A stretch of 32,000 bases of DNA from contig JAGBIO010000012.1 of assembly GCA_017934955.1 (NCBI GenBank), forward strand, positions 12,691-44,690, given 5' to 3'. The notes under the pieces were generated by a model that saw nothing but the letters and a program-made list of their open reading frames with translations, was not told where the DNA came from and made no database searches. A program made the translations under genes and the position numbers. Positions within the stretch are counted from its first letter, which is position 1. Every line of letters begins with the position of its first letter. Source of the DNA: Clostridia bacterium. Its GTDB lineage: Bacteria; Bacillota; Clostridia; TANB77; RGIG9151. Positions 3,417 to 30,436 of the stretch are shown here, piece by piece.

Positions 3417-3593
3417 GTAGGGACACAATTTATTGTGTCCTAATTTTAATGTCTGATTATTTTCCGGAAACAAAAATGGCACAATCATTGTAGGGACAGC
3501 ATTCATGCTGTCCACAGAAAAGGCAGGACAGCATAAATGCTGTCCCTACAAAGGTCGTGTAGTAATATCGTAGGGACACAATTTATCGTGTCC
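3417..3593. repeat. REP-like cluster A: CA-variant hairpin, REPIN-like inverted doublet, CA-variant hairpin
   Basis: - GTAGGGACACAATTTATTGTGTCC at 3417-3440.
- GTAGGGACAGCATTCATGCTGTCC-ACAGAAAAGGCA-GGACAGCATAAATGCTGTCCCTAC at 3490-3549.
- GTAGGGACACAATTTATCGTGTCC at 3570-3593.
- The 23-bp direct repeat AATATCGTAGGGACACAATTTAT occurs at 3411 and 3564. Confidence 0.9.
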
Positions 3594-3606
3594 ACAGAAT
3601 ATTTTC

Positions 3607-3843
3607 TTATCCCATGTCTTTACAATAGTCAAAAATTAAAGCACCGATACAAATTTCAGCAATTGCAATAAAAACAGAACTTGCTAACTCTCTGCCTAAA
3701 AACAGATTATAGTTGTTGGTTGAAGTATATAATAAGATATTCGCAACAACCAATAAAATAAGGCAAACAGATAATCCGTATTTTAAAATGTACTTTGAGA
3801 TTTTACTCATGTTTGATATCTTTTTTTGCATTTTTTCTTTCAT
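3607..3843 (-). CDS. Small hypothetical membrane protein (about 78 aa, two predicted TM helices)
   Basis: The internal ATG at 3843 is preceded by a GGGGATGG RBS. It has hydrophobic segments YGLSVCLILLVVANILLY and SSVFIAIAEICIGALIF. No family was recognised, and the longer 115-aa version in the track lacks an RBS. Confidence 0.4.
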   Translation of the reverse strand: MKEKMQKKISNMSKISKYILKYGLSVCLILLVVANILLYTSTNNYNLFLGRELASSVFIAIAEICIGALIFDYCKDMG

Positions 3844-4026
3844 TTGACCATCCCCGTTTTTGTAATAATTTTGAAGAAGAAAAAGATGGTAAAGAATCTT
3901 CGAAACTCTTACCTTCTTGGTAATATTGTACCATAGGGGGCCCCGTTCCCGCAAATGTAATTATAGCCTATAAAACCATAAAATGGTTCAGTCTTTGGTA
4001 TAAAGGGCAAAAAAAAATAGCCTAAG

Positions 4027-4260
4027 CTATTTTTGTTTTTTGATTGCATTTTTTAACATATCCAAAGCCTGCATTTGAACTTCTGCCGCTCTTTGGTTTT
4101 CCTCCATCATTTCGATATACACTTCCTTACGGAATACTTTAACATCCTTTGGAGCGTTAATACCAACCCTTACTTGATCTCCCTGAATGTCAATAACCGT
4201 TATCTCTATATTATCATTCACAACAATAGATTGGTTTCTCTTTCTGGTTAAAACAAGCAT
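4027..4260 (-). CDS. csrA: Carbon storage regulator CsrA (translational regulator)
   Basis: MLVLTRKRNQSIVVNDNIEITVIDIQGDQVRVGINAPKDVKVFRKEVY is a near-canonical CsrA sequence. It lies directly downstream of fliW, as in Firmicutes. Confidence 0.95.
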   Translation of the reverse strand: MLVLTRKRNQSIVVNDNIEITVIDIQGDQVRVGINAPKDVKVFRKEVYIEMMEENQRAAEVQMQALDMLKNAIKKQK

Positions 4261-4272
4261 TTTCCCATCCTC

Positions 4273-4716
4273 CTATGCTTTTACAAATTCCTCTGTGATA
4301 ATATGTTTGAATTTATATTTATCACTCTCTTGTACTACCTGACAGCCTCTGTTTTCCTTTGCGTTAATAATCACCGGTGCTTTTAAATTGATTGATATTT
4401 TTTGAATATCCTGAGGTACTGTTACGATACAGTAGATAAGAGCATCGTTTGGATCTGTTATCTTTAGCATATTTGCTGTAAATGTATCAATTTCAGCTTC
4501 ATAGTCCGGAACTAAATCGCGAGGGTCCATAATTACAAATGCTAAATTTGGATTTTGAACGGATTGAAGCCAGAAAAACGGATCATCTTCCGCATCGGTT
4601 TTGCCTAAAATAACAAACTTCGTCATATTTTCAAAACCGGGTACTCCATACTCAAAAAATATAATGTCATCATCCTTGATTTCTACCTCTCCAAAGTTTT
4701 TTGTATTCAGTAACAT
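4273..4716 (-). CDS. fliW: Flagellar assembly factor FliW (CsrA antagonist)
   Basis: 147 aa with ...IIFFEYGVPGFENMTKFVIL...DPFFWLQSVQNPNLAFVIMDP, typical of FliW. RBS GGGAGGAAAG. Paired with csrA. Confidence 0.9.
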   Translation of the reverse strand: MLLNTKNFGEVEIKDDDIIFFEYGVPGFENMTKFVILGKTDAEDDPFFWLQSVQNPNLAFVIMDPRDLVPDYEAEIDTFTANMLKITDPNDALIYCIVTVPQDIQKISINLKAPVIINAKENRGCQVVQESDKYKFKHIITEEFVKA

Positions 4717-4813
4717 ACTTCTTTCCTCCCTAATAAACGTAGTTCCTTTTAGTATTGGCAGAAACTTATATTTTTAATCTATAATAATAATTTATAAATG
4801 TCAACTATTTTTC

Positions 4814-4842
4814 TTGCATTTATTTTCATTATGTGGTAGAAT
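4814..4842 (+). promoter_or_regulatory. SigmaA-type promoter of rpsT
   Basis: TTGCAT (4814-4819), a 17-nt spacer, then TAGAAT (4837-4842). It lies about 58 nt upstream of the TTG start. Confidence 0.65.
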
Positions 4843-4899
4843 ATAGGCTGTTAGAAAGTGTAATAAACGCACTGTTCGTTTTAATAGGGGGTGAACAAT

Positions 4900-5166
4900 T
4901 TGCCAAACATTAAATCAGCGAAAAAAAGAGTAGAGGTAGCAAAAGTAAATGCTGCAAGAAATGCTGCTGTGAAAACTTCTGTAAAGACTTCTTTAAAGAA
5001 ATTTGATGAATCATTGAATTCTAACGATAAAGATACAATGAAAGCTGCATACTCCGCTGCCGTAAGTAGTGTTGATCAGGCAGTTTCAAAGGGTGTTATG
5101 AAGAAAAATACAGCAAACAATAAAAAAGCATCGCTTGGTAAGAAATATACAGAAGCTACCAAGTAA
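4900..5166 (+). CDS. rpsT: 30S ribosomal protein S20
   Basis: A TTG start at 4900 gives MPNIKSAKKRVEVAKVNAARNAA..., the canonical S20 N-terminus. RBS AGGGGGTG lies 8 nt upstream. The track start (GTG 4891) adds 3 residues. Confidence 0.9.
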   Translation: MPNIKSAKKRVEVAKVNAARNAAVKTSVKTSLKKFDESLNSNDKDTMKAAYSAAVSSVDQAVSKGVMKKNTANNKKASLGKKYTEATK

Positions 5167-5174
5167 GAAAAAAC

Positions 5175-5200
5175 AGAGTCGAAGACGGCTCTTTTTTTTT
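5175..5200 (+). terminator. Intrinsic terminator of rpsT
   Basis: AGAGTCG / CGGCTCT stem (one G-U pair), loop AAGA, then a run of 9 T. Confidence 0.8.
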
Positions 5201-5202
5201 AC

Positions 5203-5464
5203 GTTACAGGTCAGACTCAATAATTTTGTATCTTTCAAAAAATATCGTCAAAATGCGGTTTGTACGGACACAATTTATTGTGTCCTGATTCTAATATCAG
5301 GCTATTTCGTGGACACAATAAATTGTGTCCCTACGGTATCAGTGGAAAGTCATTTGTACGGACAGCATTCATGCTGTCCTGCTTTCTGCCTATTCTGTGG
5401 ACAGCATAAATGCTGTCCCTACAGTGTTCGTAATATTTTTATAATTTTAAGTCTGCCCGATAAG
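5203..5464. mobile_element. Composite MITE-like element B carrying two REPIN-like doublets (one CA-variant, one GC-type)
   Basis: The left end is GTTACAGGTCAGAC (5203-5216). Hairpins lie at 5262-5285, 5311-5334 (CA variant), 5356-5379 and 5399-5422. The right end AAGTCTGCCCGATAAG (5449-5464) is degenerate relative to GTCTGACCTGTAAC. Confidence 0.7.
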
Positions 5465-5492
5465 TTTTACTGTTTTTCAATTGACAGAACCG

Positions 5493-5522
5493 TTGACAAA
5501 TTACTTAAAATTTTAGTACAAT
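5493..5522 (+). promoter_or_regulatory. SigmaA-type promoter of glgB
   Basis: TTGACA (5493-5498), an 18-nt spacer, then TACAAT (5517-5522). A second TTGACA lies at 5481-5486. Confidence 0.55.
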
Positions 5523-5574
5523 TTAAACATTGGAAAAACAACGCAGACAAAAGAAAAATTGGAGGAATTTACGA

Positions 5575-7782
5575 ATGAGAACGAATGGAAAAATAGAAGA
5601 AATTTATAAGGTGATGAAAGGAGAACATAAAGATCCGTTTTCGGTTTTGGGAATGCACGTGGAAACTTCCGGAAAAAAGAAATGTGTGACGGTTCGTGCT
5701 TACTTACCTTTTGCGAAGCAGTGCTATCTAATTGATTTAGAGGCAAATGAAAAGAGAGAAATGGAATTAATCGATGAAGCCGGTTTCTTTGAACTCATTA
5801 TGCCGGATAAAAAAGACATGTTTTCTTATAAACTGATGACCTTGGATAATTACGGTGTTTCCTACACCTTTTACGATCCGTATTCTTTTTGGCCGGTTAT
5901 TACGGATTATGATTTATATTTATTTAACGAAGGAAAGAATGAAAGGATTTTTGATAAATTAGGGGCTCATATTATGACGGTAAATGGCGTTACCGGTGTT
6001 CTTTTTGCGGTTTGGGCGCCTTCTGCAAAACGTGTTAGCGTTGTCGGAAACTTTAACGGTTGGGATGGCAGACGTTATCAGATGAGAATGAGAGGTTCTT
6101 CCGGTGTTTGGGAAATCTTTATTCCGGAATTGGGAGAATGGGAATATTATAAATATGAAATTAAAGCACAAAATAACGATGTTTTCTTAAAAGCAGATCC
6201 GTATGGCTATTATGCGGAATTAAAGCCGAAAACGGCTTCGATTGTGTTTAATCTTGACAAATACCAATGGCATGATGAGGAGTGGTTGAAAAATCGTGCG
6301 ATGGGAGACAATACGAAAAAGCCGATGTCGATTTATGAATTGCATTTCGGTTCCTGGATGAAGCCGGTACATAATGATGAGGAATCTTACTTCAATTATC
6401 GGGAGTTGGCGGAAAGAATCATCCCGTATGTGAAGGAAATGAATTACACTCATATTGAAGTAATGCCGGTAGCGGAGCATCCGTTTGACGGTTCTTGGGG
6501 GTATCAGGTTGGCGGTTATTATGCGGCGACAAGCCGTTACGGGACGCCGGAAGATTTTATGTACTTTGTGGATAAATGTCATGAGGCAGGAATCGGTCTT
6601 ATCGTGGACTGGGTTCCGGCACATTTTCCGAAGGATGCACATGGGCTGGCTAAGTTTGACGGTACGGCGTTGTATGAACATGCCGATCCGAGACAGGGAG
6701 AACATCCGGATTGGGGAACGTTGATTTTCAATTTCGGAAGAAATGAAGTAAAGAACTTCTTAATTGCAAATGCTTTGTTCTGGTTTGAAAAGTATCACAT
6801 CGACGGATTGAGAGTGGATGCGGTTGCGTCGATGCTGTATTTGGATTACGGTAAAAAAGACGGAGAATGGATTCCGAATAAGTGGGGCGGCAGAGAGAAT
6901 ATCGAAGCAGTAGAGTTTTTGAAAGAGTTAAATAAAGAAGTATATGGAAAATTTCCGGGGGCTTTGATGGTTGCGGAAGAATCGACTTCTTGGGCACTTG
7001 TAACGAAACCGACGTATATCGGTGGTTTGGGATTCGGATTTAAGTGGAATATGGGCTGGATGAATGATTTCTTAAGGTATATGAGTATGGATCCGATTTA
7101 CCGGAAGTATCATCATACCAATATTACGTTCTCAATGTGGTATGCGTATTCCGAAAACTTTATTTTGGTATTGTCGCATGATGAAGTTGTGCATGGAAAG
7201 TGTTCAATGCTTAGTAAAATGCCGGGAGATTATTGGCAGAAGTTCGCAAACTTACGTACTGCTTACGGCTTTATGTACGGACATCCGGGGAAAAAATTGA
7301 TGTTTATGGGAGATGAATTCGGTCAATTTATCGAATGGAATTATCATCAAGGCTTGGATTGGCATTTATTGGAATATGATATGCACAAAAAGATGCAGAC
7401 CTATGTAAAAGATTTGAATACATTATATAAAGAAAATAAAGCACTTTGGGAATTGGATTGCAGTGAGCGTGGCTTTGAGTGGATTGATTGTCATGATGCC
7501 GAGAGAAGTGTGGTTTCTTTCTTGAGAAGAGATGAGGAAGGCAATGAATTGATTTTTGTTTGTAACTTTACGCCGGTGAAATACGAAGGATACCGTGTTG
7601 GTGTTCCAAGCAGAGGTTTCTTTAGAGAAATCTTTAACAGCGATTCCGAGAAATACGGCGGAAGTAATGCCGGAAACGGAGAAGGACTGTGGGCTGATGA
7701 TACCGCATGGCACGGTCGTTTGAATTCAATTGTGATGACGGTACCGCCATTGGCGACGGTTGTGTTTAAGAAAGATAAGTAA
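5575..7782 (+). CDS. glgB: 1,4-alpha-glucan branching enzyme GlgB (GH13)
   Basis: Full-length similarity to GlgB, including FAVWAPSAKRVSVVGNFNGWDG, GIGLIVDWVPAHFPKD, DGLRVDAVASMLY, MVAEESTSW and VLSHDEVVHGK. ATG 5575 follows GGAGGA, and the upstream in-frame extension in the track runs into the promoter. Confidence 0.95.
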   Translation: MRTNGKIEEIYKVMKGEHKDPFSVLGMHVETSGKKKCVTVRAYLPFAKQCYLIDLEANEKREMELIDEAGFFELIMPDKKDMFSYKLMTLDNYGVSYTFYDPYSFWPVITDYDLYLFNEGKNERIFDKLGAHIMTVNGVTGVLFAVWAPSAKRVSVVGNFNGWDGRRYQMRMRGSSGVWEIFIPELGEWEYYKYEIKAQNNDVFLKADPYGYYAELKPKTASIVFNLDKYQWHDEEWLKNRAMGDNTKKPMSIYELHFGSWMKPVHNDEESYFNYRELAERIIPYVKEMNYTHIEVMPVAEHPFDGSWGYQVGGYYAATSRYGTPEDFMYFVDKCHEAGIGLIVDWVPAHFPKDAHGLAKFDGTALYEHADPRQGEHPDWGTLIFNFGRNEVKNFLIANALFWFEKYHIDGLRVDAVASMLYLDYGKKDGEWIPNKWGGRENIEAVEFLKELNKEVYGKFPGALMVAEESTSWALVTKPTYIGGLGFGFKWNMGWMNDFLRYMSMDPIYRKYHHTNITFSMWYAYSENFILVLSHDEVVHGKCSMLSKMPGDYWQKFANLRTAYGFMYGHPGKKLMFMGDEFGQFIEWNYHQGLDWHLLEYDMHKKMQTYVKDLNTLYKENKALWELDCSERGFEWIDCHDAERSVVSFLRRDEEGNELIFVCNFTPVKYEGYRVGVPSRGFFREIFNSDSEKYGGSNAGNGEGLWADDTAWHGRLNSIVMTVPPLATVVFKKDK

Positions 7783-7788: not shown

Positions 7789-7917
7789 GGACAGCATGAA
7801 TGCTGTCCGTACAGAGAAATTGTAAACAATTTAACATTTTAAGATAATTATAAAATTGTGAACGATTTAACATTTTGAGATAATTATAAAATTGTAGGGA
7901 CAGCATTTATGCTGTCC
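7789..7917. repeat. REP-like pair C flanking a 2 x 36-bp tandem repeat
   Basis: - GGACAGCATGAATGCTGTCCGTAC at 7789-7812.
- 36-bp units at 7819-7854 and 7855-7890 (ATTGTAAACAATTTAACATTTTAAGATAATTATAAA and a copy with 3 mismatches).
- GTAGGGACAGCATTTATGCTGTCC at 7894-7917. Confidence 0.9.
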
Positions 7918-8514: not shown

Positions 8515-8704
8515 GTTACAGGTCAAACTCAAATTTATAGAGAAGGCACAAACACTGTAGGGACAGCATTTATGCTGTCCAAAGAAAAGGCAAAAAGCAG
8601 GACACAATAAATTGTGTCCCTACAATGATTGTGCCATTCTTGTAGGGGACGGCGTCCTCGACGTCCCGATATATTTGTAAAGAAATTTAAGTCCGAACTG
8701 TAAT
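8515..8704. mobile_element. MITE-like element D with a chimeric doublet (GC-type plus CA-variant) and a nested GC-rich hairpin
   Basis: - Left end GTTACAGGTCAAAC at 8515.
- Hairpins at 8557-8580 (GC type) and 8600-8623 (CA variant).
- GTAGGGGACGGCGTCCTCGACGTCCC at 8642-8667.
- Degenerate right end AAGTCCGAACTGTAAT ending about 8704. Confidence 0.75.
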
Positions 8705-10125: not shown

Positions 10126-10280
10126 GTTACAGGTCAGACCATATTTCTCTACAATGATGGTACAATCATCGTAGGGACAGCATTCATGCTGTCCTGCTTT
10201 CTGCCTTTCCTGTGGACAGCATAAATGCTGTCCCTACACTAGATTGTGGCATTTTTATAAATTTAAGTCTGACCTGTAAC
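10126..10280. mobile_element. MITE-like element E (155 bp), best-preserved copy, inverted relative to D, G and H
   Basis: Perfect 14-bp terminal inverted repeats GTTACAGGTCAGAC (10126-10139) and GTCTGACCTGTAAC (10267-10280). The internal doublet is at 10171-10194 and 10214-10237. Confidence 0.8.
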
Positions 10281-11372: not shown

Positions 11373-11492
11373 GGACAGCATGAATGCTGTCCGTACAAAG
11401 GAAAGAGATACGATCAACATAGGGACAGCATGAATGCTGTCCGTACAGAGGGAAGCGGTACGATCAATGTAGGGACAGCATTTATGCTGTCC
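11373..11492. repeat. Tandem REP array F (3 hairpins, 50-bp period)
   Basis: Hairpins lie at 11373-11396, 11419-11446 and 11469-11492. The inter-hairpin segments AAAGGAAAGAGATACGATCAACA and AGAGGGAAGCGGTACGATCAATG are related to each other. Confidence 0.9.
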
Positions 11493-11553
11493 GGTGATAG
11501 GCAGAATGTAAATCGAGATGGCTGGTAAAAACACCTGTTTTGGAGGAATGAAT

Positions 11554-13692
11554 ATGGCAAAATGGGATTTTGAAAAGAGTGAAAAGAGAATGAATAAAGA
11601 TATGAAAAAGCGAAATAAAGCGGCGACGAAGAGACAAAAGCCGATGGGATGTGCGATTGTTTGGTCATTCTTATTAATCGGATTGTTTGCCGGATTGGGA
11701 GTGGCAGTGGCGATTATTGTGGGAATTTTGACTGATTCCCCGACAATTAATATTGAAGATTATCAGATTAAAAATATTTCTACCGTTTTCTATGACAGAG
11801 ACGGAAAAGAAACAGATACGGCGCATGGGGGCGAAAACAGAACAATTGAGTATTTGGATAAGATTCCGAAATATTTGCAGGATGCGTTTATCTCGATTGA
11901 AGACGAACGGTTTTATGAGCATAACGGTGTCGATCTTCAGAGAACGGCAGGTGCGATTTGGGGCTTTATTCGAACCTTTGGAAAGGGAACCTACGGTGGC
12001 AGTACCATTACCCAACAGCTTGTAAAGAACATGACGCAGGATAAGGCTGATGAAGGATTGGAAGGCGTTCTTCGAAAAGTGCGTGAGTGGTGGCGTGCTA
12101 CGATGATTGAACGAGAACTTTCAAAGGATCAGATTTTGGAATTATATCTAAATACGGTTTATTTCGGTAATTCGACTTATGGTGTCAAGGAAGCAGCAAA
12201 TCTGTATTTTTCGAAGGAAACGTCGGATTTGACTTTAGCAGAGTCAGCGTTACTTGCCGGGGTACCGAATCGACCGGTAAAATACGATCCGTTTACGAAT
12301 TTAGAGAATGCGAAGGCAAGACAGAAAGTTATTTTAGGGAAGATGAAGGAGCTTGGAAAGATTACGGAAGCGGAATACCAAGCCGCTTTGGAAGAAGAAA
12401 TTGTGATTAAGCGAGGGTTAAACTCTACCGGTTCCTCTCATTCATGGTTTATTGATGCGGTGATTGAAGACGTAATCAAGGATTTGCAAGAGAAAAAAGG
12501 AATGACGAAAGTAAGTGCGTCGAATTTAATTTATGGTGGCGGTTTGAAAATTTATACCACCATGGATTCTAAGGTGCAGGCTGCAATGGATCAGGTGTTT
12601 GTTACAGAGGATGCGACGATGTTTAAGGCGTTTGCGAATAAAGAAGAACAACCGCAAGCGGCAATGGTGGTAGAAGATTATAAGACCGGTCATATTTTAG
12701 GAATTGTAGGCGGTCGAGGCGAAAAAACATCTAAACGTGAGTTTAACAGAACGACGCAAGCCTATCGTCAGCCGGGTTCGACGATAAAGCCGTTAGCAAT
12801 TTACGGACCGGCGATAGAGGATAAAATAATTACGGCGGCGACGATTATATCGGATACCCCGCTTACGATTGAGATCCCGGGAAGTAAACCGTGGTCTCCG
12901 ACCAATTGGTATGGTAGTTATTATGGAAATGTTACGGTTCGATATGCGATTGAGCAGTCGATGAATGTTCCTGCTGCTCGCGTGTTGCAGATGATAGGAT
13001 TAAATAGAGCTTATCAAGCATTAGAGGAGGAAGGAATTACGACTCTTCAGAAAGAAGATTTAAATTATGCGCCGCTTTCTTTGGGTGGCTTAAATAAGGG
13101 CGTTACCGTTCGTGAATGGACCGGAGCCTATGGAATGATTGCAAACGGTGGTATTTATAATCAGCCGATTACTTACACAAAAGTTGAAGATGCGAACGGA
13201 ACGATTATTTTACAGAATAAGAGGAAGGAAAAAAGAGTATTTAGTTCCGGAACGGCATATGTGTTAACGGATATCATGAAGGGTGTTATAACAAAAGGGA
13301 CAGCACGTTCGGCGCGATTAGAAAACAGTGTAGCTGCCGGAAAGACCGGCTCGACAACCGGTACCAAGGATAAATGGTTTGTAGGGTATACCCCGTATTA
13401 TGTAGCGGCAGTGTGGTTTGGATATGATGAACCGAAAGTAATGGATGTTGGTGGAGAAGTTGGTAAACAGATTTGGAAGAAGGTTATGGATATTCTTCAT
13501 AAAGATTTACCGAGTATTGATTTTTCGATTCCGGAGGATGTGCAGCAAATCGGTATTTGCAGTGTTTCCGGTAAGAGAACGACTTCTTATTGCAGCGGTT
13601 ACGGGAAGAATGAATGGTTTGTGAAGGGAAGCGAGCCGACCGGTTATTGTACCTACCATTCGGCGCCGTCCTATTATCCGGAAGGAATATAG
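11554..13692 (+). CDS. Class A penicillin-binding protein (bifunctional glycosyltransferase GT51 / transpeptidase, PBP1A-type)
   Basis: TM anchor plus GT51 motifs (AFISIEDERFYEHNGVD, GGSTITQQLVKN, RKVREW), transpeptidase STIKP, and KTGST. ATG 11554 lies 7 nt after GGAGGA. Confidence 0.9.
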   Translation: MAKWDFEKSEKRMNKDMKKRNKAATKRQKPMGCAIVWSFLLIGLFAGLGVAVAIIVGILTDSPTINIEDYQIKNISTVFYDRDGKETDTAHGGENRTIEYLDKIPKYLQDAFISIEDERFYEHNGVDLQRTAGAIWGFIRTFGKGTYGGSTITQQLVKNMTQDKADEGLEGVLRKVREWWRATMIERELSKDQILELYLNTVYFGNSTYGVKEAANLYFSKETSDLTLAESALLAGVPNRPVKYDPFTNLENAKARQKVILGKMKELGKITEAEYQAALEEEIVIKRGLNSTGSSHSWFIDAVIEDVIKDLQEKKGMTKVSASNLIYGGGLKIYTTMDSKVQAAMDQVFVTEDATMFKAFANKEEQPQAAMVVEDYKTGHILGIVGGRGEKTSKREFNRTTQAYRQPGSTIKPLAIYGPAIEDKIITAATIISDTPLTIEIPGSKPWSPTNWYGSYYGNVTVRYAIEQSMNVPAARVLQMIGLNRAYQALEEEGITTLQKEDLNYAPLSLGGLNKGVTVREWTGAYGMIANGGIYNQPITYTKVEDANGTIILQNKRKEKRVFSSGTAYVLTDIMKGVITKGTARSARLENSVAAGKTGSTTGTKDKWFVGYTPYYVAAVWFGYDEPKVMDVGGEVGKQIWKKVMDILHKDLPSIDFSIPEDVQQIGICSVSGKRTTSYCSGYGKNEWFVKGSEPTGYCTYHSAPSYYPEGI

Positions 13693-14236: not shown

Positions 14237-14390
14237 GTTACAATTCAGACTCAAATTTGTAGAGAAAGCACAAACCCTGTAGGGACAGCATTTATGCTGT
14301 CCACAGAAAAGGCAGAAAGCAAGACAGCATAAATGCTGTCCCTACAATGGTCGCACCATCGTTGTAGGACGATACAGTCTGACCTGTAAC
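14237..14390. mobile_element. MITE-like element G (154 bp) inside the riboswitch leader
   Basis: The ends are GTTACAATTCAGAC (14237-14250) and GTCTGACCTGTAAC (14377-14390). Hairpins lie at 14279-14302 and 14322-14345, the second with one G-to-A change. AAAATTTT flanks both ends. Confidence 0.8.
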
Positions 14391-14411: not shown

Positions 14412-14530
14412 TAAGGAAAAAGGCAAATTTTACGAAAGTAAGAGACGCAAAGTCACGAGACTAAGGTATGTCGGTGGGTACAATATTCAAACGCCGGATA
14501 CTATGTTGGTCGGACCGCCGTAAAAAGGGA
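14412..14530 (+). promoter_or_regulatory. Candidate c-di-GMP-I (GEMM) riboswitch aptamer
   Basis: Elements seen in order:
- GGCAAA at 14422-14427.
- Helix UUUAC/GUAAG capped by a GAAA tetraloop at 14429-14442.
- GACGCAAAG at 14444-14452.
- Second helix GUC/GAC (14452-14454 with 14513-14515) and GAC/GUC (14459-14461 with 14509-14511).
- These enclose a UAAG (14462-14465) / UAUG (14502-14505) tetraloop-receptor-like loop.
- Distal GUAU/AUAC pairing.
- A 3' CGGACCGCC that can close on GGC.
The match is to my recalled consensus, not a covariance-model score. Confidence 0.6.
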
Positions 14531-14631: not shown

Positions 14632-16578
14632 ATGAGAAACTATAAGTTTTGTTTAGGGATTTTAATAGTAATGATAACGATTGTTGGATTTCGAGTTTTT
14701 TTCATTTCAGAATGTAAATCAGAGGATATTCGAGATGCTGGAGAACTTATGTACCCTTCAAAACCAAAGCCAAAGCCGGTATATAATAAAAAGCCTGTGC
14801 ACTACCATAACAACAGTCAACATTGCAGTGCAACCCACTGTAATCATTCATGGTGCAGTTGCGGATCGGGAGCAAGTCATAGCTGCGGCGGCGGTTGCAC
14901 ATGGGGTTCATGGCAATTGTATAACGGAACACAACATGCGCAGTTATGCACAAGAGGGTGTGGCAGAACGAATGGTTTGCATAATGCTGCATGGAAATCT
15001 TGGTCAAGTAATCATACCATCGAATGTAACAAATGTACTCTTGTCGGAAGTCATACAGCAAACTGGGCGACAAACTATAGTATCAATAGTTCTACAGGAA
15101 ATCATGAACAAAAATGTACTAATAAATATATTACAACGTTAGCCGGTAAATCCGTTAATATTAATTCGCAAAAAAGTTGTACAGCGACGCGAGATGTACA
15201 TTCCCCGGAATTTACGGCGCCATATTATAAAATGAATGCTGCCGGAGAAAGTAACGGAAGTGCCCAGCATAGACGTGACTGTCAACATAGTGGGTGTAAC
15301 CTATCTGAGACGCATAATCCGACGTGGGGAGAATGGACAAGTATCAGCGACGATCAGCATAGACGAAGCTGTATATACGGATCGGGATGCGATTTAACAC
15401 AGACATTGCAACACAATAAGGTTTATACACCGATTGAAGGAGATATTCACAATCATATTGTTACTTGCGATAGCGGAGATACGGATCATCCATGTCCGTA
15501 TTATGCAATAAAAGAACATGTGGATAGCAATCCTCGAGATGGAAAATGTGATTTATGTAAAGATGGTAATGATAACTTTAAATTGTATCAAATAGAATAT
15601 GACCCGGAACCTACCGAATTAACCAATAAAGACGTTACGGTAACGGTTACGATGTACGATGTAGGAAATAAGACGGATATAACAAAAAGTCATATTTATA
15701 CGAAAAACAATTTAAATGAACTGGAAGAAGAACGTTATGAATTCGTTTTTGACGGAATTGATACGAGTAGAGATCAAATTAGACCAATTGTAGATCATAT
15801 CAATAAAAGTGTCAGCGGAAGAATTAAATATGAACCGAATAAGCCGACTTCAGAACCGGTAACGATTACATTTTTACCGGATTACGAAGAAGAAACTTAC
15901 GGAGATTACCAAAGGGCGGAATATGGAAACAGAAGTAAGCAAATTTACGGAAGAATTTTAATTGACGGAGAGCCGATTCCGGATTGGCAACTGGCGGAAA
16001 CTGCTTCACGAGTTCCGACAATCACGCATACATTTACAGAAAACGGAAGTTGTGAAATTGAGTTATATGATACGGTAGGAAACGGAAACCGTGATAGTGA
16101 GGAAGGAAAACAAAGTGTAAAAATACCGGTTATGGTAGATTGGATTGTTTCGGGTCAAGCAACGGTAGCGACAACCAGTAACGTATTGGAAAACGGAACT
16201 GTCTTTACCGATCTCTTGATTAATGCAGATAAAGAATGGAATATAACGGATGCACAACAGCAAATTGCAGTAAAAATCTATCAAATTACGGCAGAAGGAA
16301 ATATTGTAGCAACAGAAAAGAGTGCAAGAATCAGCAAATTGGAAGTAAAAGATTATACAGAAAACAGAATCACCGAGACGCCGATTGGAAGAGGATTATA
16401 CTATATCAAAGTCGGAATCGGCGGTCCGGGTATCTTTACAAGTGATCCGGAACAAGAAAGTACACGTTATATCGTGGAAATCAGTACGATAACTCCAAAT
16501 CAAGGAGAGCCGGGTTTAACGATTTTAGGAAAGAACCGAATAGAAGTGACGGTTAATAAATTAAATGATTTAACATAG
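14632..16578 (+). CDS. Secreted or membrane-anchored Cys/His-repeat protein (648 aa): N-terminal hydrophobic anchor, PKPKP linker, about 6 Cys2His2-like modules, then beta-rich Ig-like C-terminal half
   Basis: ATG 14632 follows the AGGAGAGGGTG RBS. The N-terminus carries the TM/signal segment CLGILIVMITIVGFRVFFI. The region around 14800-15576 encodes repeated W-x2-W...H-x3-C-x(2-5)-C...H units. The stop lies 12 nt before the next gene. No family name was recognised. Confidence 0.85.
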   Translation: MRNYKFCLGILIVMITIVGFRVFFISECKSEDIRDAGELMYPSKPKPKPVYNKKPVHYHNNSQHCSATHCNHSWCSCGSGASHSCGGGCTWGSWQLYNGTQHAQLCTRGCGRTNGLHNAAWKSWSSNHTIECNKCTLVGSHTANWATNYSINSSTGNHEQKCTNKYITTLAGKSVNINSQKSCTATRDVHSPEFTAPYYKMNAAGESNGSAQHRRDCQHSGCNLSETHNPTWGEWTSISDDQHRRSCIYGSGCDLTQTLQHNKVYTPIEGDIHNHIVTCDSGDTDHPCPYYAIKEHVDSNPRDGKCDLCKDGNDNFKLYQIEYDPEPTELTNKDVTVTVTMYDVGNKTDITKSHIYTKNNLNELEEERYEFVFDGIDTSRDQIRPIVDHINKSVSGRIKYEPNKPTSEPVTITFLPDYEEETYGDYQRAEYGNRSKQIYGRILIDGEPIPDWQLAETASRVPTITHTFTENGSCEIELYDTVGNGNRDSEEGKQSVKIPVMVDWIVSGQATVATTSNVLENGTVFTDLLINADKEWNITDAQQQIAVKIYQITAEGNIVATEKSARISKLEVKDYTENRITETPIGRGLYYIKVGIGGPGIFTSDPEQESTRYIVEISTITPNQGEPGLTILGKNRIEVTVNKLNDLT

Positions 16579-25158: not shown

Positions 25159-25824
25159 ATGCCGATTATCATTCTTTTTGGTATCATTATAGGATATTTA
25201 TTAAATAATTATACATTAACGGTTACCGAAGAAACGGAAGGAAATCCGATTCGGCCGGTTTTCGATAAAAAAGTGACACCGATTATTTTATTATGGAATA
25301 TCTTAATTCCGATATTGTTGTATATTGGTTACGGCGGCGTTTTTTCCGCAGGATTTTTTCGGGATTTTATATTATCCGCTTTGTTCTCTGCCATCCTTTT
25401 TATTGATGCGAAGCATTATATTATTCCGAATATTCTGAATTTAATCGGATTTGTAGCGGGAGTTGTTATTCTTTTTATCGATTCATCCGATATAGGAAAT
25501 TATCTGTTCGGTGCCGGAATCGGATTGGGATTTTTTCTGGTCATTATTCTTCTCTCTAAGTTAATTTTGAAGAAAGAAGGAATGGGGCTTGGAGATGCAA
25601 AATTAATGTGTGTGGTAGGAATTCTCTTCGGAACGGTTTATACGATTCTAACCACAATCCTATCCTTTATTTTAGCATCCGTCGGCGTTACAATATCGCT
25701 TATTTTCAAAAAGAAACAGATGGGACAGGAAATTGCCTTCGGACCCTACATCGTAGCCGCAGGCATGATAGCAATGTTTTTCGGACAAGATATCATTAAT
25801 TTGTATTTAGGACTATTGCAATAA
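25159..25824 (+). CDS. A24 family prepilin (type IV leader) peptidase, peptidase domain only
   Basis: Polytopic membrane protein with the two catalytic Asp contexts FIDAKHYIIPN and GMGLGDAKLM. It lacks the N-terminal Cys-rich/methyltransferase region. Confidence 0.85.
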   Translation: MPIIILFGIIIGYLLNNYTLTVTEETEGNPIRPVFDKKVTPIILLWNILIPILLYIGYGGVFSAGFFRDFILSALFSAILFIDAKHYIIPNILNLIGFVAGVVILFIDSSDIGNYLFGAGIGLGFFLVIILLSKLILKKEGMGLGDAKLMCVVGILFGTVYTILTTILSFILASVGVTISLIFKKKQMGQEIAFGPYIVAAGMIAMFFGQDIINLYLGLLQ

Positions 25825-25854
25825 TTGCAAACTCAATAAAAAACATCAAAACGT

Positions 25855-26005
25855 GTTACTGTTCAGGCTTAAATTTATAAAAACGGCACAGACACTGTAG
25901 GGACAGCATTTATGCTGTCCACAGAAAAGGCAGAAAGCAGGACAGCATGAATGCTGTCCCTACAATGGCTGTACCATTATTGTAGGAGATATAGTCTGAA
26001 GTAAC
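25855..26005. mobile_element. MITE-like element H (degenerate ends)
   Basis: The ends are GTTACTGTTCAGGC (25855) and AGTCTGAAGTAAC (25993-26005). Hairpins lie at 25897-25920 and 25940-25963. It is collinear with element G over its length. Confidence 0.75.
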
Positions 26006-26011
26006 CAAAAC

Positions 26012-26034
26012 GTAGGGGACGGGTCTCCCGTCCC
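26012..26034. repeat. GC-rich GTAG-headed hairpin (second REP family)
   Basis: GTAG + GGGACGGG TCT CCCGTCCC (perfect 8-bp stem), followed by GCGATATA. It is related to the copies at 8642-8667 and 26985-27010. Confidence 0.8.
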
Positions 26035-26063
26035 GCGATATACGATAGAAATGAGGTAACCAT

Positions 26064-26909
26064 ATGATAAAATTCGGACCGGGAGGAAACTCGGTATCTT
26101 TTTATGAAACAGGACATAAAAGCTCTTTAGAAGCGCCAAAATGGCTTTCTGAGATAGGGCTGAACGCGTATGAATACGAATGTGGAAACGGTGTCAGAAT
26201 TACATCGGAAACCGCAAAGAAATTTGGAGAAGAAGCGGCAAAATACGGAATTGAAGTTAGCGTACATGCGCCATACTTTATTTCTTTATCTTCTGAAGAG
26301 GAAGAAAAGCGGGAAAAGTCTGTCGGATATATCTTGCAAACCTTAAAAGCAGCGAAAGCCATGGGTGCTGCACGAATTGTGGTACACCCGGGAAGTTGCT
26401 CGAAACGTGATCGAAAAGAAGCCTTCTTACTGGCATGCGAAACGATGAAGAAAGCGGTTGCAGCTGCAAAAGCCGAAGGATACGGAGATATTTATATATG
26501 TCCCGAAACGATGGGGAAAATCAATCAAATCGGGACAGTAGAAGAGATTGCCGAAATGTGCAAAATCGATGAAATGTTAATGCCAACCATTGATTTCGGT
26601 CATATTAACGCAAGAGAAACGGGAAGTCTAAAGACAGAAGAAGATTTTGAAAAAATTGTAACGCATATGATAAAGGAATTAGGAGAAGAACGCGGAAGAA
26701 AGTTTCACGTGCATTTCAGTAAAATCGAATACACGAAAGGCGGAGAAAAATGTCACCTTACCTTTGCAGACAATGTCTATGGTCCTGAATTTGAACCGTT
26801 GGCAAAAGTATTAAAGAAGTATAAGGTTCAAGCTACCATTATCTGCGAATCCGCCGGGACCATGACGGAAGATGCTTTAGAGATGAAACGAATCTATGAG
26901 TCGATGTAG
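26064..26909 (+). CDS. Xylose-isomerase-like TIM-barrel protein (AP endonuclease family 2 / endonuclease IV-like)
   Basis: 281 aa with GIEVSVHAPYFISL, IVVHPGS and IDFGHINA metal-ligand-like contexts typical of this fold. The exact function cannot be assigned. Confidence 0.65.
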   Translation: MIKFGPGGNSVSFYETGHKSSLEAPKWLSEIGLNAYEYECGNGVRITSETAKKFGEEAAKYGIEVSVHAPYFISLSSEEEEKREKSVGYILQTLKAAKAMGAARIVVHPGSCSKRDRKEAFLLACETMKKAVAAAKAEGYGDIYICPETMGKINQIGTVEEIAEMCKIDEMLMPTIDFGHINARETGSLKTEEDFEKIVTHMIKELGEERGRKFHVHFSKIEYTKGGEKCHLTFADNVYGPEFEPLAKVLKKYKVQATIICESAGTMTEDALEMKRIYESM

Positions 26910-27010
26910 GGACGTCCTGATTCTACCGTCTGCCTATTCTGTGGACAGCATGAATGCTGTCCCTACAATGATTGTATCATCCTTGTAGGGGACGGCGTCC
27001 TCGACGTCCC
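26906..27010. repeat. REP cluster I: deleted half-doublet, intact hairpin, and a GC-rich hairpin
   Basis: - GTAGGGACGTCC at 26906-26917. This aligns with a full hairpin lacking its central 12 nt.
- GGACAGCATGAATGCTGTCCCTAC at 26943-26966.
- GTAGGGGACGGCGTCCTCGACGTCCC at 26985-27010, identical to 8642-8667. Confidence 0.8.
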
Positions 27011-27057
27011 GATATATATTCTGAATAGGGACCACAAACTTAAATAAGGAGAAAACC

Positions 27058-28074
27058 ATGAGAATACAAAAAATCAGAGAAGCCTTGCAAAAAGAACAAA
27101 CCGAGGCGATTGTTTTATCGAATATGAAAAATGTCCGATATGCTTCCGGATTTACCGGAGACACCGGAATGGCGGTTATTACGGAAAAATCCGCTTACTT
27201 AATTGTAGACGGAAGATTTACAGAACAAGCAGAAAAAGAGAGTAAAATAGAAGTTGTAGATTATAATAAGAATTTTATAAAAACGATAGAAAGTTTGTTA
27301 AAAAACGAAAACATAAAAAAATGTGCGTTTGAAGGAAATACAATGACCTACAGCGAAGCCGACTATATGATGAAAAATATCAGCGGAATTGCATGGACAC
27401 CAACCAAAGACTTGGTTGAAACCATTCGGATGGTAAAAGACAAATCCGAGTTAAAAACCATTCAAAAAGCGTTAAAAATAGCGTTAGATACTTTTGAATC
27501 AGTAAAAAAAGAAATTGTCGCCGGTGTGCAGGAAATTGAGATTGCAAACGAGATTGAATATCGAATGAAAAAAATGGGCGCAAGCGGAGCTTCGTTTGAA
27601 ACGATTGTTGCTTCAGGAAAACGTTCTTCTTTACCTCATGGGACCGCATCCGAAAAAATCATTCAAAACGGAGACGCAGTTGTCATCGATATGGGAGCGG
27701 TATATAACGGTTATTGTTCCGATATTACCAGAACGGTTTTTGTCGGAGAGCCGACAAAAGAACAGCAACGCGTTTATGATTTGGTAGAGAAAGCACAGAA
27801 AAAGGCAATCGACGCTATTAACGTCGGCGTCAGCTGTAAAGATGTCAACGAAGTTGCTGTCAGCGAATTCCGTAAAAATGCCATGGAACAGTATTTTGTG
27901 CATTCTCTCGGGCACGGTGTCGGCTTAGACGTTCATGAACGTCCTTTTGTAGCCGGTAGAAGCAGCGATGTTTTTGAACCCGGCATGGTAGTCACCGTCG
28001 AGCCCGGACTGTATTTACCGGATCAATTCGGTGTCCGCATCGAAGACATGGTATTGGTGATGAACGAAGAGTGA
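27058..28074 (+). CDS. M24 family Xaa-Pro aminopeptidase/dipeptidase
   Basis: Creatinase-like N-domain plus a pita-bread domain with metal ligands in VVIDMGAVYNGYCSDITRT, HSLGHGVGLDVHE, VTVEPG and RIEDMV. Confidence 0.85.
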   Translation: MRIQKIREALQKEQTEAIVLSNMKNVRYASGFTGDTGMAVITEKSAYLIVDGRFTEQAEKESKIEVVDYNKNFIKTIESLLKNENIKKCAFEGNTMTYSEADYMMKNISGIAWTPTKDLVETIRMVKDKSELKTIQKALKIALDTFESVKKEIVAGVQEIEIANEIEYRMKKMGASGASFETIVASGKRSSLPHGTASEKIIQNGDAVVIDMGAVYNGYCSDITRTVFVGEPTKEQQRVYDLVEKAQKKAIDAINVGVSCKDVNEVAVSEFRKNAMEQYFVHSLGHGVGLDVHERPFVAGRSSDVFEPGMVVTVEPGLYLPDQFGVRIEDMVLVMNEE

Positions 28075-28083
28075 ATATATAAT

Positions 28084-28204
28084 TACGGACAGCATGAATG
28101 CTGTCCGTACGGAAAAGAGCAGAGAGTAGGTGTAGGGACAGCATGAATGCTGTCCGTACGGAAAAGAGCAGGGAGTAGGTGTAGGGACAGCATTTATGCT
28201 ATCC
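28084..28204. repeat. Tandem REP array J (3 hairpins, 49-bp period)
   Basis: Hairpins lie at 28084-28110, 28132-28159 and 28181-28204. The spacers GGAAAAGAGCAGAGAGTAGGT and GGAAAAGAGCAGGGAGTAGGT differ at one position. Confidence 0.9.
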
Positions 28205-28235
28205 TCGGAATAGGTAGATAGTTGGAGGAATGATT

Positions 28236-29546
28236 ATGGTAAAAATAGCATTAATTTCGTTAGGATGTAATAAGAACTTAGTAGACTCCGAAATGATTTT
28301 GGGACTCTTGGCAAAACAAGGATATCAGATTACAGATGATGAAACAGAGGCGGATGTGATTATTGTAAATACCTGTGCCTTTATTCACGATGCAAAGCAG
28401 GAGTCGATTAATAAGATTATTGAAGTCGGAACATTAAAAGAAGAAAATTGTAAAGCTATAATTGTAACCGGCTGTTTGGCGAAACGTTATGAAAAGGAAA
28501 TTAAGGAAGCGCTTCCGGAAGTAGATCGTATTGTAATGATAAACGATACCGATGCTATTATTGATTTTATTGATAAAAAGATTCCGAATGATTGCGATAA
28601 AGAGATTCGTTCGATTCCTTACGGCGAAAGAATCCGTGCGACAGCACCGCATACGGCGTATGTAAAGATTGCCGACGGTTGTAACAATCATTGTACATAT
28701 TGCGTCATTCCTTCGATTCGTGGAGAATATATAAGCAGGACGATGGAAGATATTGAGGAGGAAGTACGCACTTTGGTTGACCAAGGGGTTACCGAAATTA
28801 TTTTAACAGCGCAAGATACGACGTATTATGGCTTAGATATTTACGGAAAACGCTCCTTGGCGGAATTAATAAAAAGATTGCGTAAAATCGAAGGAATTCA
28901 TTGGTTACGATTTCAATACGCTTATCCGGAGGGAATTACGGAAGAATTATTGGAGGTTGTCAAAGAGACTCCAATTGCGGTAAAATATTTTGACATTCCG
29001 ATTCAACATTGCAATAATGAAATTTTAAAGCAGATGGGAAGAAAAACGAGTAAAGAAGCGATTTTAACGTTAATTCAAAAAATTAGAGCTAATATTCCAA
29101 GTGCCGTTTTAAGAACGTCACTGATTGTTGGTTTCCCGGGGGAATCCAAAGAACAATTTGATGAGCTTTGCGAATTTGTGAAAGAGGTAAGGTTTGACAA
29201 ATTAGGCGTTTTCGCTTATTCGAAAGAAGAAGGAACTGCCGCGGCAAGAATGAAAGGACAGATTTTAAAATCCGTAAAAATTAGGAGACGCAATCAAGTG
29301 ATGGCATTGCAACAACAAATTTCGTATGAGAAAAATCAAGAGAAAGTGGGCCGAAAAATTGAAGTTTTGGTAGAAGGAAAACTTCCGGATGGCACTTATT
29401 TCGGAAGAACCTATCAAGATTCTCCTGAAATCGACGGTTTAGCCTTTATCGAAACCGAGTGCGATTTAGAATTGGGCGAGTATTATCAAACGAAAATTAC
29501 AGAGGCAAAAGAATATGATGTGATTGTGGAATTATCGGAAGAATAG
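28236..29546 (+). CDS. rimO: Ribosomal protein S12 methylthiotransferase RimO (radical SAM MTTase)
   Basis: N-terminal MTTase Cys triad context (ISLGCNKNLVDSE, VNTCAF, VTGCL), radical-SAM CNNHCTYC, and a C-terminal TRAM domain. ATG 28236 lies 7 nt after GGAGG. Confidence 0.9.
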   Translation: MVKIALISLGCNKNLVDSEMILGLLAKQGYQITDDETEADVIIVNTCAFIHDAKQESINKIIEVGTLKEENCKAIIVTGCLAKRYEKEIKEALPEVDRIVMINDTDAIIDFIDKKIPNDCDKEIRSIPYGERIRATAPHTAYVKIADGCNNHCTYCVIPSIRGEYISRTMEDIEEEVRTLVDQGVTEIILTAQDTTYYGLDIYGKRSLAELIKRLRKIEGIHWLRFQYAYPEGITEELLEVVKETPIAVKYFDIPIQHCNNEILKQMGRKTSKEAILTLIQKIRANIPSAVLRTSLIVGFPGESKEQFDELCEFVKEVRFDKLGVFAYSKEEGTAAARMKGQILKSVKIRRRNQVMALQQQISYEKNQEKVGRKIEVLVEGKLPDGTYFGRTYQDSPEIDGLAFIETECDLELGEYYQTKITEAKEYDVIVELSEE

Positions 29547-29597
29547 GTGTCATACTTTCGAAAAACGTCAATAATCATAGAATAGGAAGGTGATTCT

Positions 29598-30368
29598 TTG
29601 GAAATATTGATAGAGAATATCCAAGTGAATTATATAGACGAAGGAAAAGGAACTCCGGTGATATTTTTACAAGGATGGGGAACCAATATTGATTTATATT
29701 ATCGTGTTTTTGATAAAATAAAACAGAAAAACCGCATTATTGCATTGGATTTCCCGGGATTCGGGAAAACGCCGGAACCGGAAACGGCATGGGCTGTGGA
29801 TAACTATGTGGATTTTTTAGAGAAGTTTATTGAAAAACTAAAGCTAAAAAAAGTTGTACTAATGGGACATTCCTTCGGTGGAAGAGTGATTATTAAATTG
29901 ATGAGTCGAAAAGATAAGAACTTTGAAGTAGAGAAGATCGTATTGTTGGATAGCGCGGGAATCAAACCGAAAACGACGGTAAAGAAGCAACTTCGCCAAA
30001 AATGGTATAAAATTTGCAAGAAAGTTGTTTCTTCAAAACCCGGAGAAAAGCTATTCCCGGGCATGGTACAAAAATTGCAAAACAAATACGGCTCAGCAGA
30101 CTATCGAAAAGCCTCGCCGTTAATGAAACAAGTTTTGGTGAAAACCGTAAACGAGGATTTAACCGATTTATTACCGAATATAAATCGTCCGACACTTTTA
30201 ATATGGGGAGACTTAGATACTGCCACTCCGTTAAGTGACGCGAAATTGATGGAAGAAAAAATTCCTGATGCCGGATTAGTGGTTTTGAAAAATACCGGAC
30301 ACTATTCTTTCTTAGAAGATTTTTATACCTTCAGTAAAGTAATTGACGTATTTTTAAACAGTAAGTAG
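29598..30368 (+). CDS. Alpha/beta-fold hydrolase
   Basis: 256 aa with nucleophile elbow GHSFGG, late DLDT and GHYSF (Asp/His) contexts. TTG start follows the GGAAGGTG RBS. Confidence 0.75.
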   Translation: MEILIENIQVNYIDEGKGTPVIFLQGWGTNIDLYYRVFDKIKQKNRIIALDFPGFGKTPEPETAWAVDNYVDFLEKFIEKLKLKKVVLMGHSFGGRVIIKLMSRKDKNFEVEKIVLLDSAGIKPKTTVKKQLRQKWYKICKKVVSSKPGEKLFPGMVQKLQNKYGSADYRKASPLMKQVLVKTVNEDLTDLLPNINRPTLLIWGDLDTATPLSDAKLMEEKIPDAGLVVLKNTGHYSFLEDFYTFSKVIDVFLNSK

Positions 30369-30374
30369 AAAATT

Positions 30375-30436
30375 GGACAGCATAAATGCTGTCCGTACAG
30401 AAAAGAGTAGGCGTAGGGACAGCATTCATGCTGTCC
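30375..30436. repeat. REP pair K (heads facing inward)
   Basis: GGACAGCATAAATGCTGTCCGTAC (30375-30398), then AGAAAAGAGTAGGC, then GTAGGGACAGCATTCATGCTGTCC (30413-30436). Confidence 0.9.

Follow-up and report, generated by a model that had tools for sequence, protein, structure and literature searches.

The intergenic regions of a 32,000-nucleotide stretch of DNA from an uncultured Clostridia bacterium (hereafter the window; positions 12,691 to 44,690 of contig JAGBIO010000012.1) carry a dense family of short hairpins tagged with GTAG. We consider it likely that these are repetitive extragenic palindromic (REP) sequences of the GTAG superfamily, many of them assembled in units of ~155 bp that resemble REPINs (REP doublets forming hairpins), and that they are multiplied in trans by a REP-associated tyrosine transposase (RAYT) encoded elsewhere in the genome. 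A first-pass annotation, made from the letters of the window alone, had already proposed a REP/REPIN system, and this identification is borne out by the GTAG tag, the short perfect hairpin, the pairing of copies in head-to-head (HH), tail-to-tail (TT) and head-to-tail (HT) dimers and the extragenic location; it is also backed by linkage to RAYT genes, which are flanked by the identical REP in two other metagenome-assembled genomes (MAGs). The same annotation took the host for a low-GC, Clostridia-like organism, in agreement with the GC content along the window (34-42%) and with the GenBank entries of its proteins (MBP3284519-MBP3284545), which are labelled 'MAG: ... [Clostridia bacterium]'. 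Contigs matching the window come from ruminant gastrointestinal metagenomes.

The repeat family and its REPIN-like unit

Copies were searched with the pattern GGACAGCATNNATGCTGTCC, allowing up to two mismatches, and 100 dinucleotide shuffles of the window served as control. This search returned 22 matches in the window and none in the shuffles. When four substitutions were allowed, five more copies appeared (at 3421, 3574, 5266, 5311 and 8600) with the doubly compensated stem GGACACAAT..ATTGTGTCC, in which two neighbouring changes on one arm are answered by two matching changes on the other. The earlier count of at least 27 copies in 11 intergenic clusters is therefore reproduced, with the qualification that the consensus written down for it fits the 22 copies with stem GGACAGCAT (AGC/GCT), the other five having the sister stem GGACACAAT (ACA/TGT). 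A census starting from the head (GTA[G/C] plus stem) gave 30 distinct hairpins, and a third hairpin type, GTAG-GGGACGG..., is present in three copies, at 8642, 26012 and 26985. The string GTAGGGAC occurs 21 times in the window against 0.27 expected, and a hairpin follows it at 20 of these 21 sites. Each of the 22 main stems has at most one mismatch. None of the hairpins overlaps a called or Pfam-supported gene, as had been claimed, with the single nuance that a truncated GTAG head supplies the TAG stop codon (26907-26909) of an AP-endonuclease-family gene.

A single copy consists of a 5' GTA(G/C) tag, GTAG in the majority and GTAC in the rest, followed by a perfect 9-bp stem of the form GGAC-NNN-AT and a 2-nt loop, which in practice amounts to an 8-bp stem with a 4-nt loop. 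The loop reads TT or TC on the head strand in every copy (AA or GA on the opposite one), exactly the restriction of the central dinucleotide that the first reading had noted. With a GTAG or GTAC head, a 9-bp stem and a 2-nt loop, the hairpins of the window (n = 30) have the stem-loop that characterizes the GTAG superfamily, and the dimers of that superfamily (HH, TT and HT) are represented by heads-outward doublets, heads-inward pairs, among them the one at 30375-30436, and head-to-tail arrays, the three arrangements described at the outset. The tandem arrays, at 11373-11493 and 28087-28204, have a period of 49-50 bp and unit identities of 88-94%; their building blocks are double-foot copies, which bear GTAG at one end and GTAC at the other, at 11419-11446 and 28132-28159. 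Independent assemblies from several samples contain the same sequence at 99.98-100% identity, so the REP-bearing sequence is not an assembly artefact.

Density was measured over positions 300-56056 of the window's 57-kb contig. There are 43 copies of the GGAC/GGGAC type in these 55.8 kb, all of them extragenic, at ~0.75 per kb. Short-read contigs of the same organism (Logan L002, L092, L096 and L097) start or end exactly at REP hairpins, showing that the repeats fragment assemblies of this organism.

Alignment of the heads-outward doublets (seven units) revealed a common spacer, ACAGAAAAGGCAGAAAGCA, and a conservation that reaches well past the hairpins into the flanks. In the consensus unit the left half is made of an outer repeat, GTTACAGGTCAGACT, ~27 AT-rich bases, GGCACAAACACT and a GTAG-headed hairpin; after the spacer ACAGAAAAGGCAGAAAGCA, the right half continues with a hairpin ending in CTAC, AATGGTTGTACC, a short palindrome and the inverted outer repeat. 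The outer repeat GTTACAGGTCAGACT occurs eight times in the window against 0.27 expected and always accompanies REP doublets on the contig; it is absent from the related genomes that we compared. Thus the inverted doublets of the first-pass annotation exist, while the unit that contains them is larger than described there, ~155 bp with outer inverted repeats GTTACAGGTCAGACT. As single-stranded DNA (ssDNA), the 155-bp unit at 10126-10280 is predicted to fold into one long hairpin (-42.5 kcal/mol, z = -9.6). With its inverted pair, shared spacer and long-hairpin fold, this unit is what Bertels and Rainey call a REPIN. A further REPIN-like unit lies outside the window, at 6954-7242 of the contig (L183 6655-6943), and in its central spacer the two REPs are set apart by an additional 135 bp, richer in GC, that may be a nested insertion.

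Between doublets the flanks are only 84-93% alike while the stems are perfect, a sign that the hairpin is under selection, be it for recognition by the enzyme or by the host. A structural constraint is also visible in other taxa. We took 225 GTAGGGAC sites there, chosen on the head plus four nucleotides alone, and at 175 of them a 9+2+9 hairpin comes next in which no fewer than 8 of the 9 positions pair. Across these sites at least 14 different middle triplets are found, compensated on the opposite arm, and positions 8-9 are mostly AT. The hairpin is thus constrained in its structure, with tag, foot and top of the stem fixed.

Association with RAYT genes and comparison with known REP systems

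We scanned one genome per species for the bare stem. The matches listed include Chloroflexota (Anaerolineae), Muribaculum and other Bacteroidota, and several rumen Clostridia MAGs (GC 0.43-0.65), and nearly all of those listed carry the same GTAG head. The stem found in the scanned genomes is one of several variants of GTAG-GGAC-NNN-AT-nn-AT-NNN-GTCC. We considered and rejected recent horizontal transfer across phyla as an explanation of the full-stem identity, since the scan had selected that stem; transfer is also countered by the presence of several middle-triplet variants per genome and by the ~31% identity between the two RAYTs that adjoin the repeat. A plasmid collection gave no REP match, and viral contigs gave two irrelevant matches.

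These two RAYTs connect the hairpin with the enzyme in genomes other than the window's, where the motifs NH[IFV]H / WQ / YIxNNP lie beside an identical REP. One of them, a Muribaculum MAG (L083), was found by tblastn with sequences of E. coli YafM and IS608 TnpA, used as probes for discovery only. It encodes a 172-aa open reading frame (ORF) in which the motifs NHFH, WQ and YIRNNV are present, and REPs of the type GTAGGGACAGCATnnATGCTGTCC paired with GGACGCCAT lie to either side of this ORF. In the other, a Clostridia MAG (L086), 170 bp separate the same REP from a RAYT N-terminus (MPNHIHG), which itself carries an in-frame REP; a search with this N-terminus returned 13 proteins, all incomplete. 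The Muribaculum protein scores E = 2.5e-7 against the NCBIfam profile REP_Tyr_transpos and E = 0.029 against Pfam Y1_Tnp, below the curated cut-off of each. PF01797 is present in some of its homologues, for which JGI uses the name RayT, and a profile built from 28 homologues matched a single PDB structure, 4ER8, the E. coli TnpA-REP (E = 3.9e-7).

The association extends to the family as a whole. At 75 of 80 metagenome loci encoding this RAYT family, a perfect hairpin headed by GT[AG]G lies in the gene or no more than 600 bp away; stricter criteria leave 70 of the 80, whereas none of 80 qualified once the sequences were shuffled. Around these loci the modal build combines a stem of 9 bp with a loop of 2 nt and a foot of RGAC or GGGC, which is exactly that of the window's repeat. 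REPs inserted in frame in the RAYT proteins themselves are visible as recurrent peptides of the form D-x-x-x-x-VPT or VGT...SLQ. Such peptides were seen in proteins P0002-P0120, L130, L134, L148, L165 and L175, and several tandem copies in L165 and P0155. The REP of the window, read in the VGT frame, would give VGTAFMLSLQ, and a stop codon is avoided by TT and TC loops only.

To our knowledge, REP/REPIN-RAYT systems have been studied almost solely in Proteobacteria. GTAG-tagged REPs, their dimers, REPINs and RAYTs are well established as such (PMC3733652, PMC3116915, PMC2817692, PMC3479197, PMC8266576). By its motifs, the RAYT family in question belongs with subclass 2.4 as defined by Quentin et al. 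2018 (PMC6006769), the equivalent of Group 4 of Bertels et al. 2017 (PMC5581495). Subclass 2.4 is described as having long perfect canonical REPs, others with a 'double foot' and copies that sit in frame within the transposase gene, and as scattered over many phyla, mainly Cyanobacteria, Bacteroidetes, Chlorobia and Caldilineae (PMC6006769); Group 4 RAYTs are common in Cyanobacteria, Chlorobia and Caldilineae and have modest repeats, with flanking 16-mers at ~14 per replicon (PMC5581495). In the window, as in the REPtrons of subclass 2.4, the tag GT[AG]G directly adjoins the foot of a long perfect hairpin, and this foot is rich in G and C, here GGAC (GGGAC in the third type); the build is the one found at 70 of the 80 RAYT loci, and double-foot copies are present too, GTAG...GTAC in the tandem arrays. 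Through other genomes the likeness extends to the protein, the identical REP flanking proteins with NH[IFV]H / WQ / YIxNN. The differences are the host, a low-GC Clostridia, and the density, ~0.75 copies per kb over 56 kb in contrast to the modest abundance of Group 4. The first-pass annotation had called such a system unusual in Clostridia; this is fair, although tempered by the scatter of subclass 2.4 over many phyla (PMC6006769).

Other systems share the general organization. The REPINs of Pseudomonas fluorescens SBW25 (Bertels & Rainey 2011, PMC3116915) are likewise inverted REP pairs with a short spacer, forming a unit that folds as a long ssDNA hairpin, and are extragenic with an occupancy that varies between relatives; they differ in their stem, in their RAYT (Group 3 / subclass 2.5) and in host phylum, and the window's unit has extra outer inverted repeats 40 bp beyond the GTAG heads. 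The REPs of E. coli, organized in bacterial interspersed mosaic elements (BIMEs) and served by TnpA-REP (4ER8; PMC3479197, PMC8266576), also have a GTAG guide 5' of the hairpin, clusters of alternating orientation and sites after stop codons in operons, but they are imperfect, bulged palindromes with a RAYT of subclass 2.2, whereas the window has perfect 9-bp stems (second recognition group, PMC8266576). The definition of GTAG-REPs in the survey of Di Nocera et al. 2013 (PMC3733652) describes the window's repeats fully: a stem-loop with an unpaired GTAG, TY loops, HH, TT and HT dimers and groups, and a location mostly between co-directional or convergent genes, the likeness to its 24 families being judged by this definition. 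In the survey the GTAG hosts are Proteobacteria, Cyanobacteria, Chloroflexi and the Planctomycetes-Verrucomicrobia-Chlamydiae (PVC) group, with no Firmicutes among them. Our search of one literature collection retrieved no paper on this sequence in a relevant context, and none joining REPIN, RAYT and Firmicutes.

Occupancy in relatives and rival explanations

We compared the occupancy of orthologous intergenic sites in collinear contigs of related organisms. L178 is a syntenic metagenome contig with 78-83% nucleotide identity to the window and a GC content of 0.34. Its gaps A24|APendo, APendo|pepP and pepP|rimO measure 12-15 bp, little beyond a ribosome-binding site (RBS), where the window has REP clusters, and at hydrolase|murF its genes abut; the window's clusters at these four sites span 110-230 bp. 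The reverse is seen once: the rimO|hydrolase gap, free of REPs in the window, holds a single identical one in L178. L191 (Logan SRR22923254), another collinear relative with a GC content of 0.33, has in its 19.6 kb four copies that are intact and two that have decayed, and among them is a variant with the compensated stem GGTCAGCAT/ATGCTGACC. The sites pepP|rimO and A24|APendo are occupied in L191 as they are in the window, and no REPs stand at APendo|pepP and hydrolase|murF. In four further contigs, L179-L182, whose GlgB is at least 90% identical, no GTAG hairpin was found in 56 kb. As the first reading had expected of a mobile family, occupancy differs between related genomes: four sites filled in the window are empty in L178, one shows the reverse, and L191 is intermediate, a pattern of mobile DNA. 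Filled and empty orthologous sites in different species indicate that the family is mobile and has expanded in the window's lineage. On the simplest reading, the ancestor of the clade had the family at low copy number, it is rare or decayed in some lineages, and the expansion in the lineage of the window came partly from new insertions and partly from local tandem duplication. The GC content of the region is 0.388 in the window and 0.33-0.36 in L178-L182 and L191, and the GC-richer REP clusters can account for only part of this difference.

We propose that a single RAYT gene elsewhere in the genome would encode an HUH/Y1 ssDNA enzyme (TnpA-REP; Quentin subclass 2.4 / Bertels Group 4) that multiplies the copies in trans. 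Such an enzyme would recognise the folded hairpin and its GTAG tag on ssDNA and would cut and rejoin beside it. The family would have been present at low copy in the ancestor of the clade and would have expanded in the lineage of the window, with most insertions landing a short way past a stop codon, in the gaps that separate the cistrons of core operons. Any consequences for the host (protection of RNA 3' ends, partial attenuation, and effects on translation near stop codons) would probably be secondary.

Several points weigh against a resident RAYT and against mobility as set out here. A hidden Markov model (HMM) of 120 homologues detected no RAYT in 56 kb of the window organism's contig. 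A query joining the HUH motif to in-gene REP peptides (VGTAFMLSLQ, DSMNAVPT and others) returned backbone matches only and no RAYT, and the species-specific doublet pattern had 0 matches in JGI metagenomes. The exact stem is tied to a RAYT at two loci in other taxa, the rest being association at the level of the family, and the scores of the Muribaculum protein are both under the curated cut-offs of NCBIfam and Pfam. No insertion polymorphism was seen within the species among four independent assemblies, which are all of the same strain, and mobility is shown between species only, every assembly of the window organism being one strain. The two filled sites that the window and L191 have in common may reflect descent or site preference. 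Lastly, the genome-wide copy number is an extrapolation that rests on one 56-kb contig.

The first of these points raises the alternative that the hairpins are orphans, true REPs whose RAYT has been lost or was never resident, and which are kept by tandem duplication, recombination or host selection. Neither the 56 kb nor the directed searches contained a RAYT, local tandem duplication does add copies (in both arrays, with the unit identities given above), and the flanks of doublets have diverged by 7-16%, so many copies are not very young. However, 56 kb is ~2% of a typical genome and the absence of a RAYT from it means little. The 22 main stems are intact, with at most one mismatch, while the copies of L191 are visibly decayed, which suggests ongoing renewal or selection in the lineage of the window, and new sites have been filled there relative to both L178 and L191. 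We regard orphan REPs as improbable. Much less probable still is that the ~155-bp composites are miniature inverted-repeat transposable elements (MITEs) moved by a DDE transposase through the outer inverted repeats GTTACAGGTCAGACT, with the GTAG hairpins as internal cargo. Conserved outer inverted repeats always bracket the doublets, as a MITE would have it, but no target-site duplication (direct repeats) flanks the five composites inspected, and many copies (single copies, heads-inward pairs and tandem arrays) have no outer repeats; L178 and L191 have bare REPs without them, and the build tied to RAYTs is head plus hairpin.

Nor do we see much likelihood in the hairpins being structures evolved by the host for regulation (terminators, RNA stabilisers or protein-binding sites), inherited vertically and not mobile, an idea to which we would give the smallest credence. 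Their position after stop codons and between cistrons, and a few T-rich tails, agree with it. It is contradicted by the empty orthologous sites in close relatives and by the one site filled in the relative only; moreover most copies have no T-run, several T-tails are on the non-coding strand, the same sequence occurs between convergent, divergent and co-directional genes, and the same head and stem stand beside RAYT genes in other phyla. Readings as tRNA-, CRISPR- or integron-like elements were set aside on account of the irregular spacing, the palindromic copies and their scatter over 11 gaps.

A RAYT-driven REP family remains our preferred reading. More tentatively, and at somewhat less than even chances, we suggest that it is specifically a Group 4 / subclass 2.4 RAYT-REPIN system that has undergone a lineage-specific explosion in one uncultured low-GC Clostridia species of the ruminant gut, wedged in the stop-to-RBS gaps of core operons. 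The REP/REPIN type itself is established; what sets this case apart is its host, its density and a series of sites that runs from empty through single to expanded. The case extends the reach of REP/REPIN-RAYT systems to gut or rumen Clostridia, with nearly every larger intergenic gap reshaped, from 12-15 to 110-230 bp. If 0.75 copies per kb were maintained genome-wide, the total would be of the order of 2,000 copies, a density several-fold that of E. coli. Sister lineages with no copies, one copy or a few decayed copies would form a natural series of before, during and after, and these empty, single and expanded sites offer material on the course of an invasion and its cost or benefit to the host. 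Finally, the constancy across phyla of GTAG, the GGAC foot and the AT top, together with a covarying middle triplet that is free to change, would represent the recognition code of the enzyme. The same pattern supplies a simple recognition model for the least-studied group of RAYTs.

Surroundings of the clusters and effects on RNA

The window encodes flagellar export proteins (FliH, FliI and FliJ), FliW, CsrA, ribosomal protein S20, GlgB and GlgP, as well as TsaD, PBP1A, RimO and MurF, and has a c-di-GMP-I riboswitch that precedes a pair of very large surface proteins. Convergent, divergent and co-directional gene pairs are all represented among the neighbours of the REP clusters, which are listed below.

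Table. Positions of the REP clusters, with their parts and neighbouring genes, and of two further features (L191 positions are those of its own contig)
Feature	Position	Parts	Neighbours and orthologous gaps
REP cluster 1	3417..3593	Hairpins 3417-3440 (+, ACA stem) and 3570-3593 (+, ACA stem, 1 mismatch); heads-outward doublet 3490-3549, made of 3490-3513 (+) and 3526-3549 (-)	213-aa gene after fliJ / minus-strand small gene
REP cluster 2	5203..5460	Outer repeat GTTACAGGTCAGACT at 5203, right outer repeat degenerate; heads-outward doublets 5262-5334 (ACA stems) and 5356-5422 (AGC stems)	rpsT (S20) / glgB
REP cluster 3	7789..7917	Heads-inward hairpins 7789-7812 (-, GTAC head) and 7894-7917 (+)	Convergent glgB / VanW gene
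REP cluster 4	8515..8704	190-bp composite with outer inverted repeats at both bounds; heads-outward doublet 8557-8623 (AGC + ACA stems); third-type hairpin GTAG-GGGACGGCG... 8642-8667	Divergent VanW / M23 peptidase genes
REP cluster 5	10126..10280	Cleanest REPIN-like unit, 155 bp; outer inverted repeats 10126-10140 and 10266-10280; heads-outward doublet 10171-10237	M50-like gene / tsaD
REP cluster 6	11373..11492	50-bp-period array: 11373-11396 (-), 11423-11446 (-, double foot ATAG...GTAC), 11469-11492 (+)	tsaD / PBP1A gene
REP cluster 7	14237..14390	154-bp REPIN-like unit; outer inverted repeats at 14237 and 14376; heads-outward doublet 14279-14345	c-di-GMP-I riboswitch 22 bp downstream
c-di-GMP-I riboswitch	14412-14522 (+)	Rfam RF01051, 69.7 bits	22 bp downstream of REPIN-like unit
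REP cluster 8	25855..26034	Degenerate outer repeat; heads-outward doublet 25897-25963; third-type hairpin 26012-26034	A24 prepilin-peptidase-family gene / AP-endonuclease-family gene; gap of 15 bp in L178
REP cluster 9	26906..27010	Truncated GTAGGGACG head at 26906, which supplies the upstream gene with its stop codon; hairpins 26943-26966 (-) and 26985-27010 (+, third type)	Gap of 12 bp in L178
REP cluster 10	28087..28204	49-bp-period array: 28087-28110 (-), 28132-28159 (double foot GTAG...GTAC), 28181-28204 (+, 1 mismatch)	pepP / rimO; site empty in L178, one decayed and one intact copy in L191
REP cluster 11	30375..30436	Heads-inward pair 30375-30398 (-, GTAC head) and 30413-30436 (+)	alpha/beta-hydrolase gene / murF; the two genes abut in L178
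REPs in L191 (reverse-complement coordinates)	1697-1777, 13380-13437, 15368-15469	Decayed copies beside intact ones	At two sites shared with the window

T-rich tails follow a minority of the copies, and several of these tails are on the strand opposite to the flanking genes, so canonical termination is not the general role of these REPs. Several copies begin 5-16 nt past a stop codon. In E. coli, REPs shield the upstream mRNA from 3' exonucleases, and Liang, Rudd and Deutscher reportedly found in 2015 that a REP within ~15 nt of a stop codon can reduce expression of the upstream gene through ribosome stalling; given the distances seen here, similar effects are plausible in the window's organism. 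At the gathering threshold of Rfam, the c-di-GMP-I riboswitch was the sole match in the window, and no described RNA family fits the REPs; a permissive Rfam scan of 25800-28300 gave sub-threshold miRNA-precursor look-alikes only, for the long hairpin.

The REP together with a CTACAAT or CTACAGT flank forms a sigma-70-like match, TGGACA-N16-TACAAT (9-10 of 12 positions), directed outward through the head. Sites of this kind include 26942-26969 (+), 3514-3487 (-), 5398-5425 (+) and 10213-10240 (+). Promoter-like sites in total show no excess over shuffles, and these matches are a lead only.

The stop codon of the AP-endonuclease-family gene is TAA in the L178 orthologue and TAG in that of L191, with no REP head in either, and a stop codon inside a GTAG head is also found in the RAYT gene of the Muribaculum MAG (L083 2599-2602). 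Between the heads-inward REPs of cluster 3, downstream of glgB, lies a 36-bp AT-rich tandem repeat (7817-7896; 2.2 copies, 90% matches). The riboswitch lies upstream of two proteins, one of 650 aa that has no Pfam hit and a surface protein of 1933 aa with GBS_Bsp-like and Flg_new domains. Downstream of the window on the same contig (L185 17630-19932), REP doublets enclose a gene for an AAA_14/DUF4143 ATPase and, adjacent to it, a nucleotidyltransferase/HEPN pair resembling a toxin-antitoxin system.

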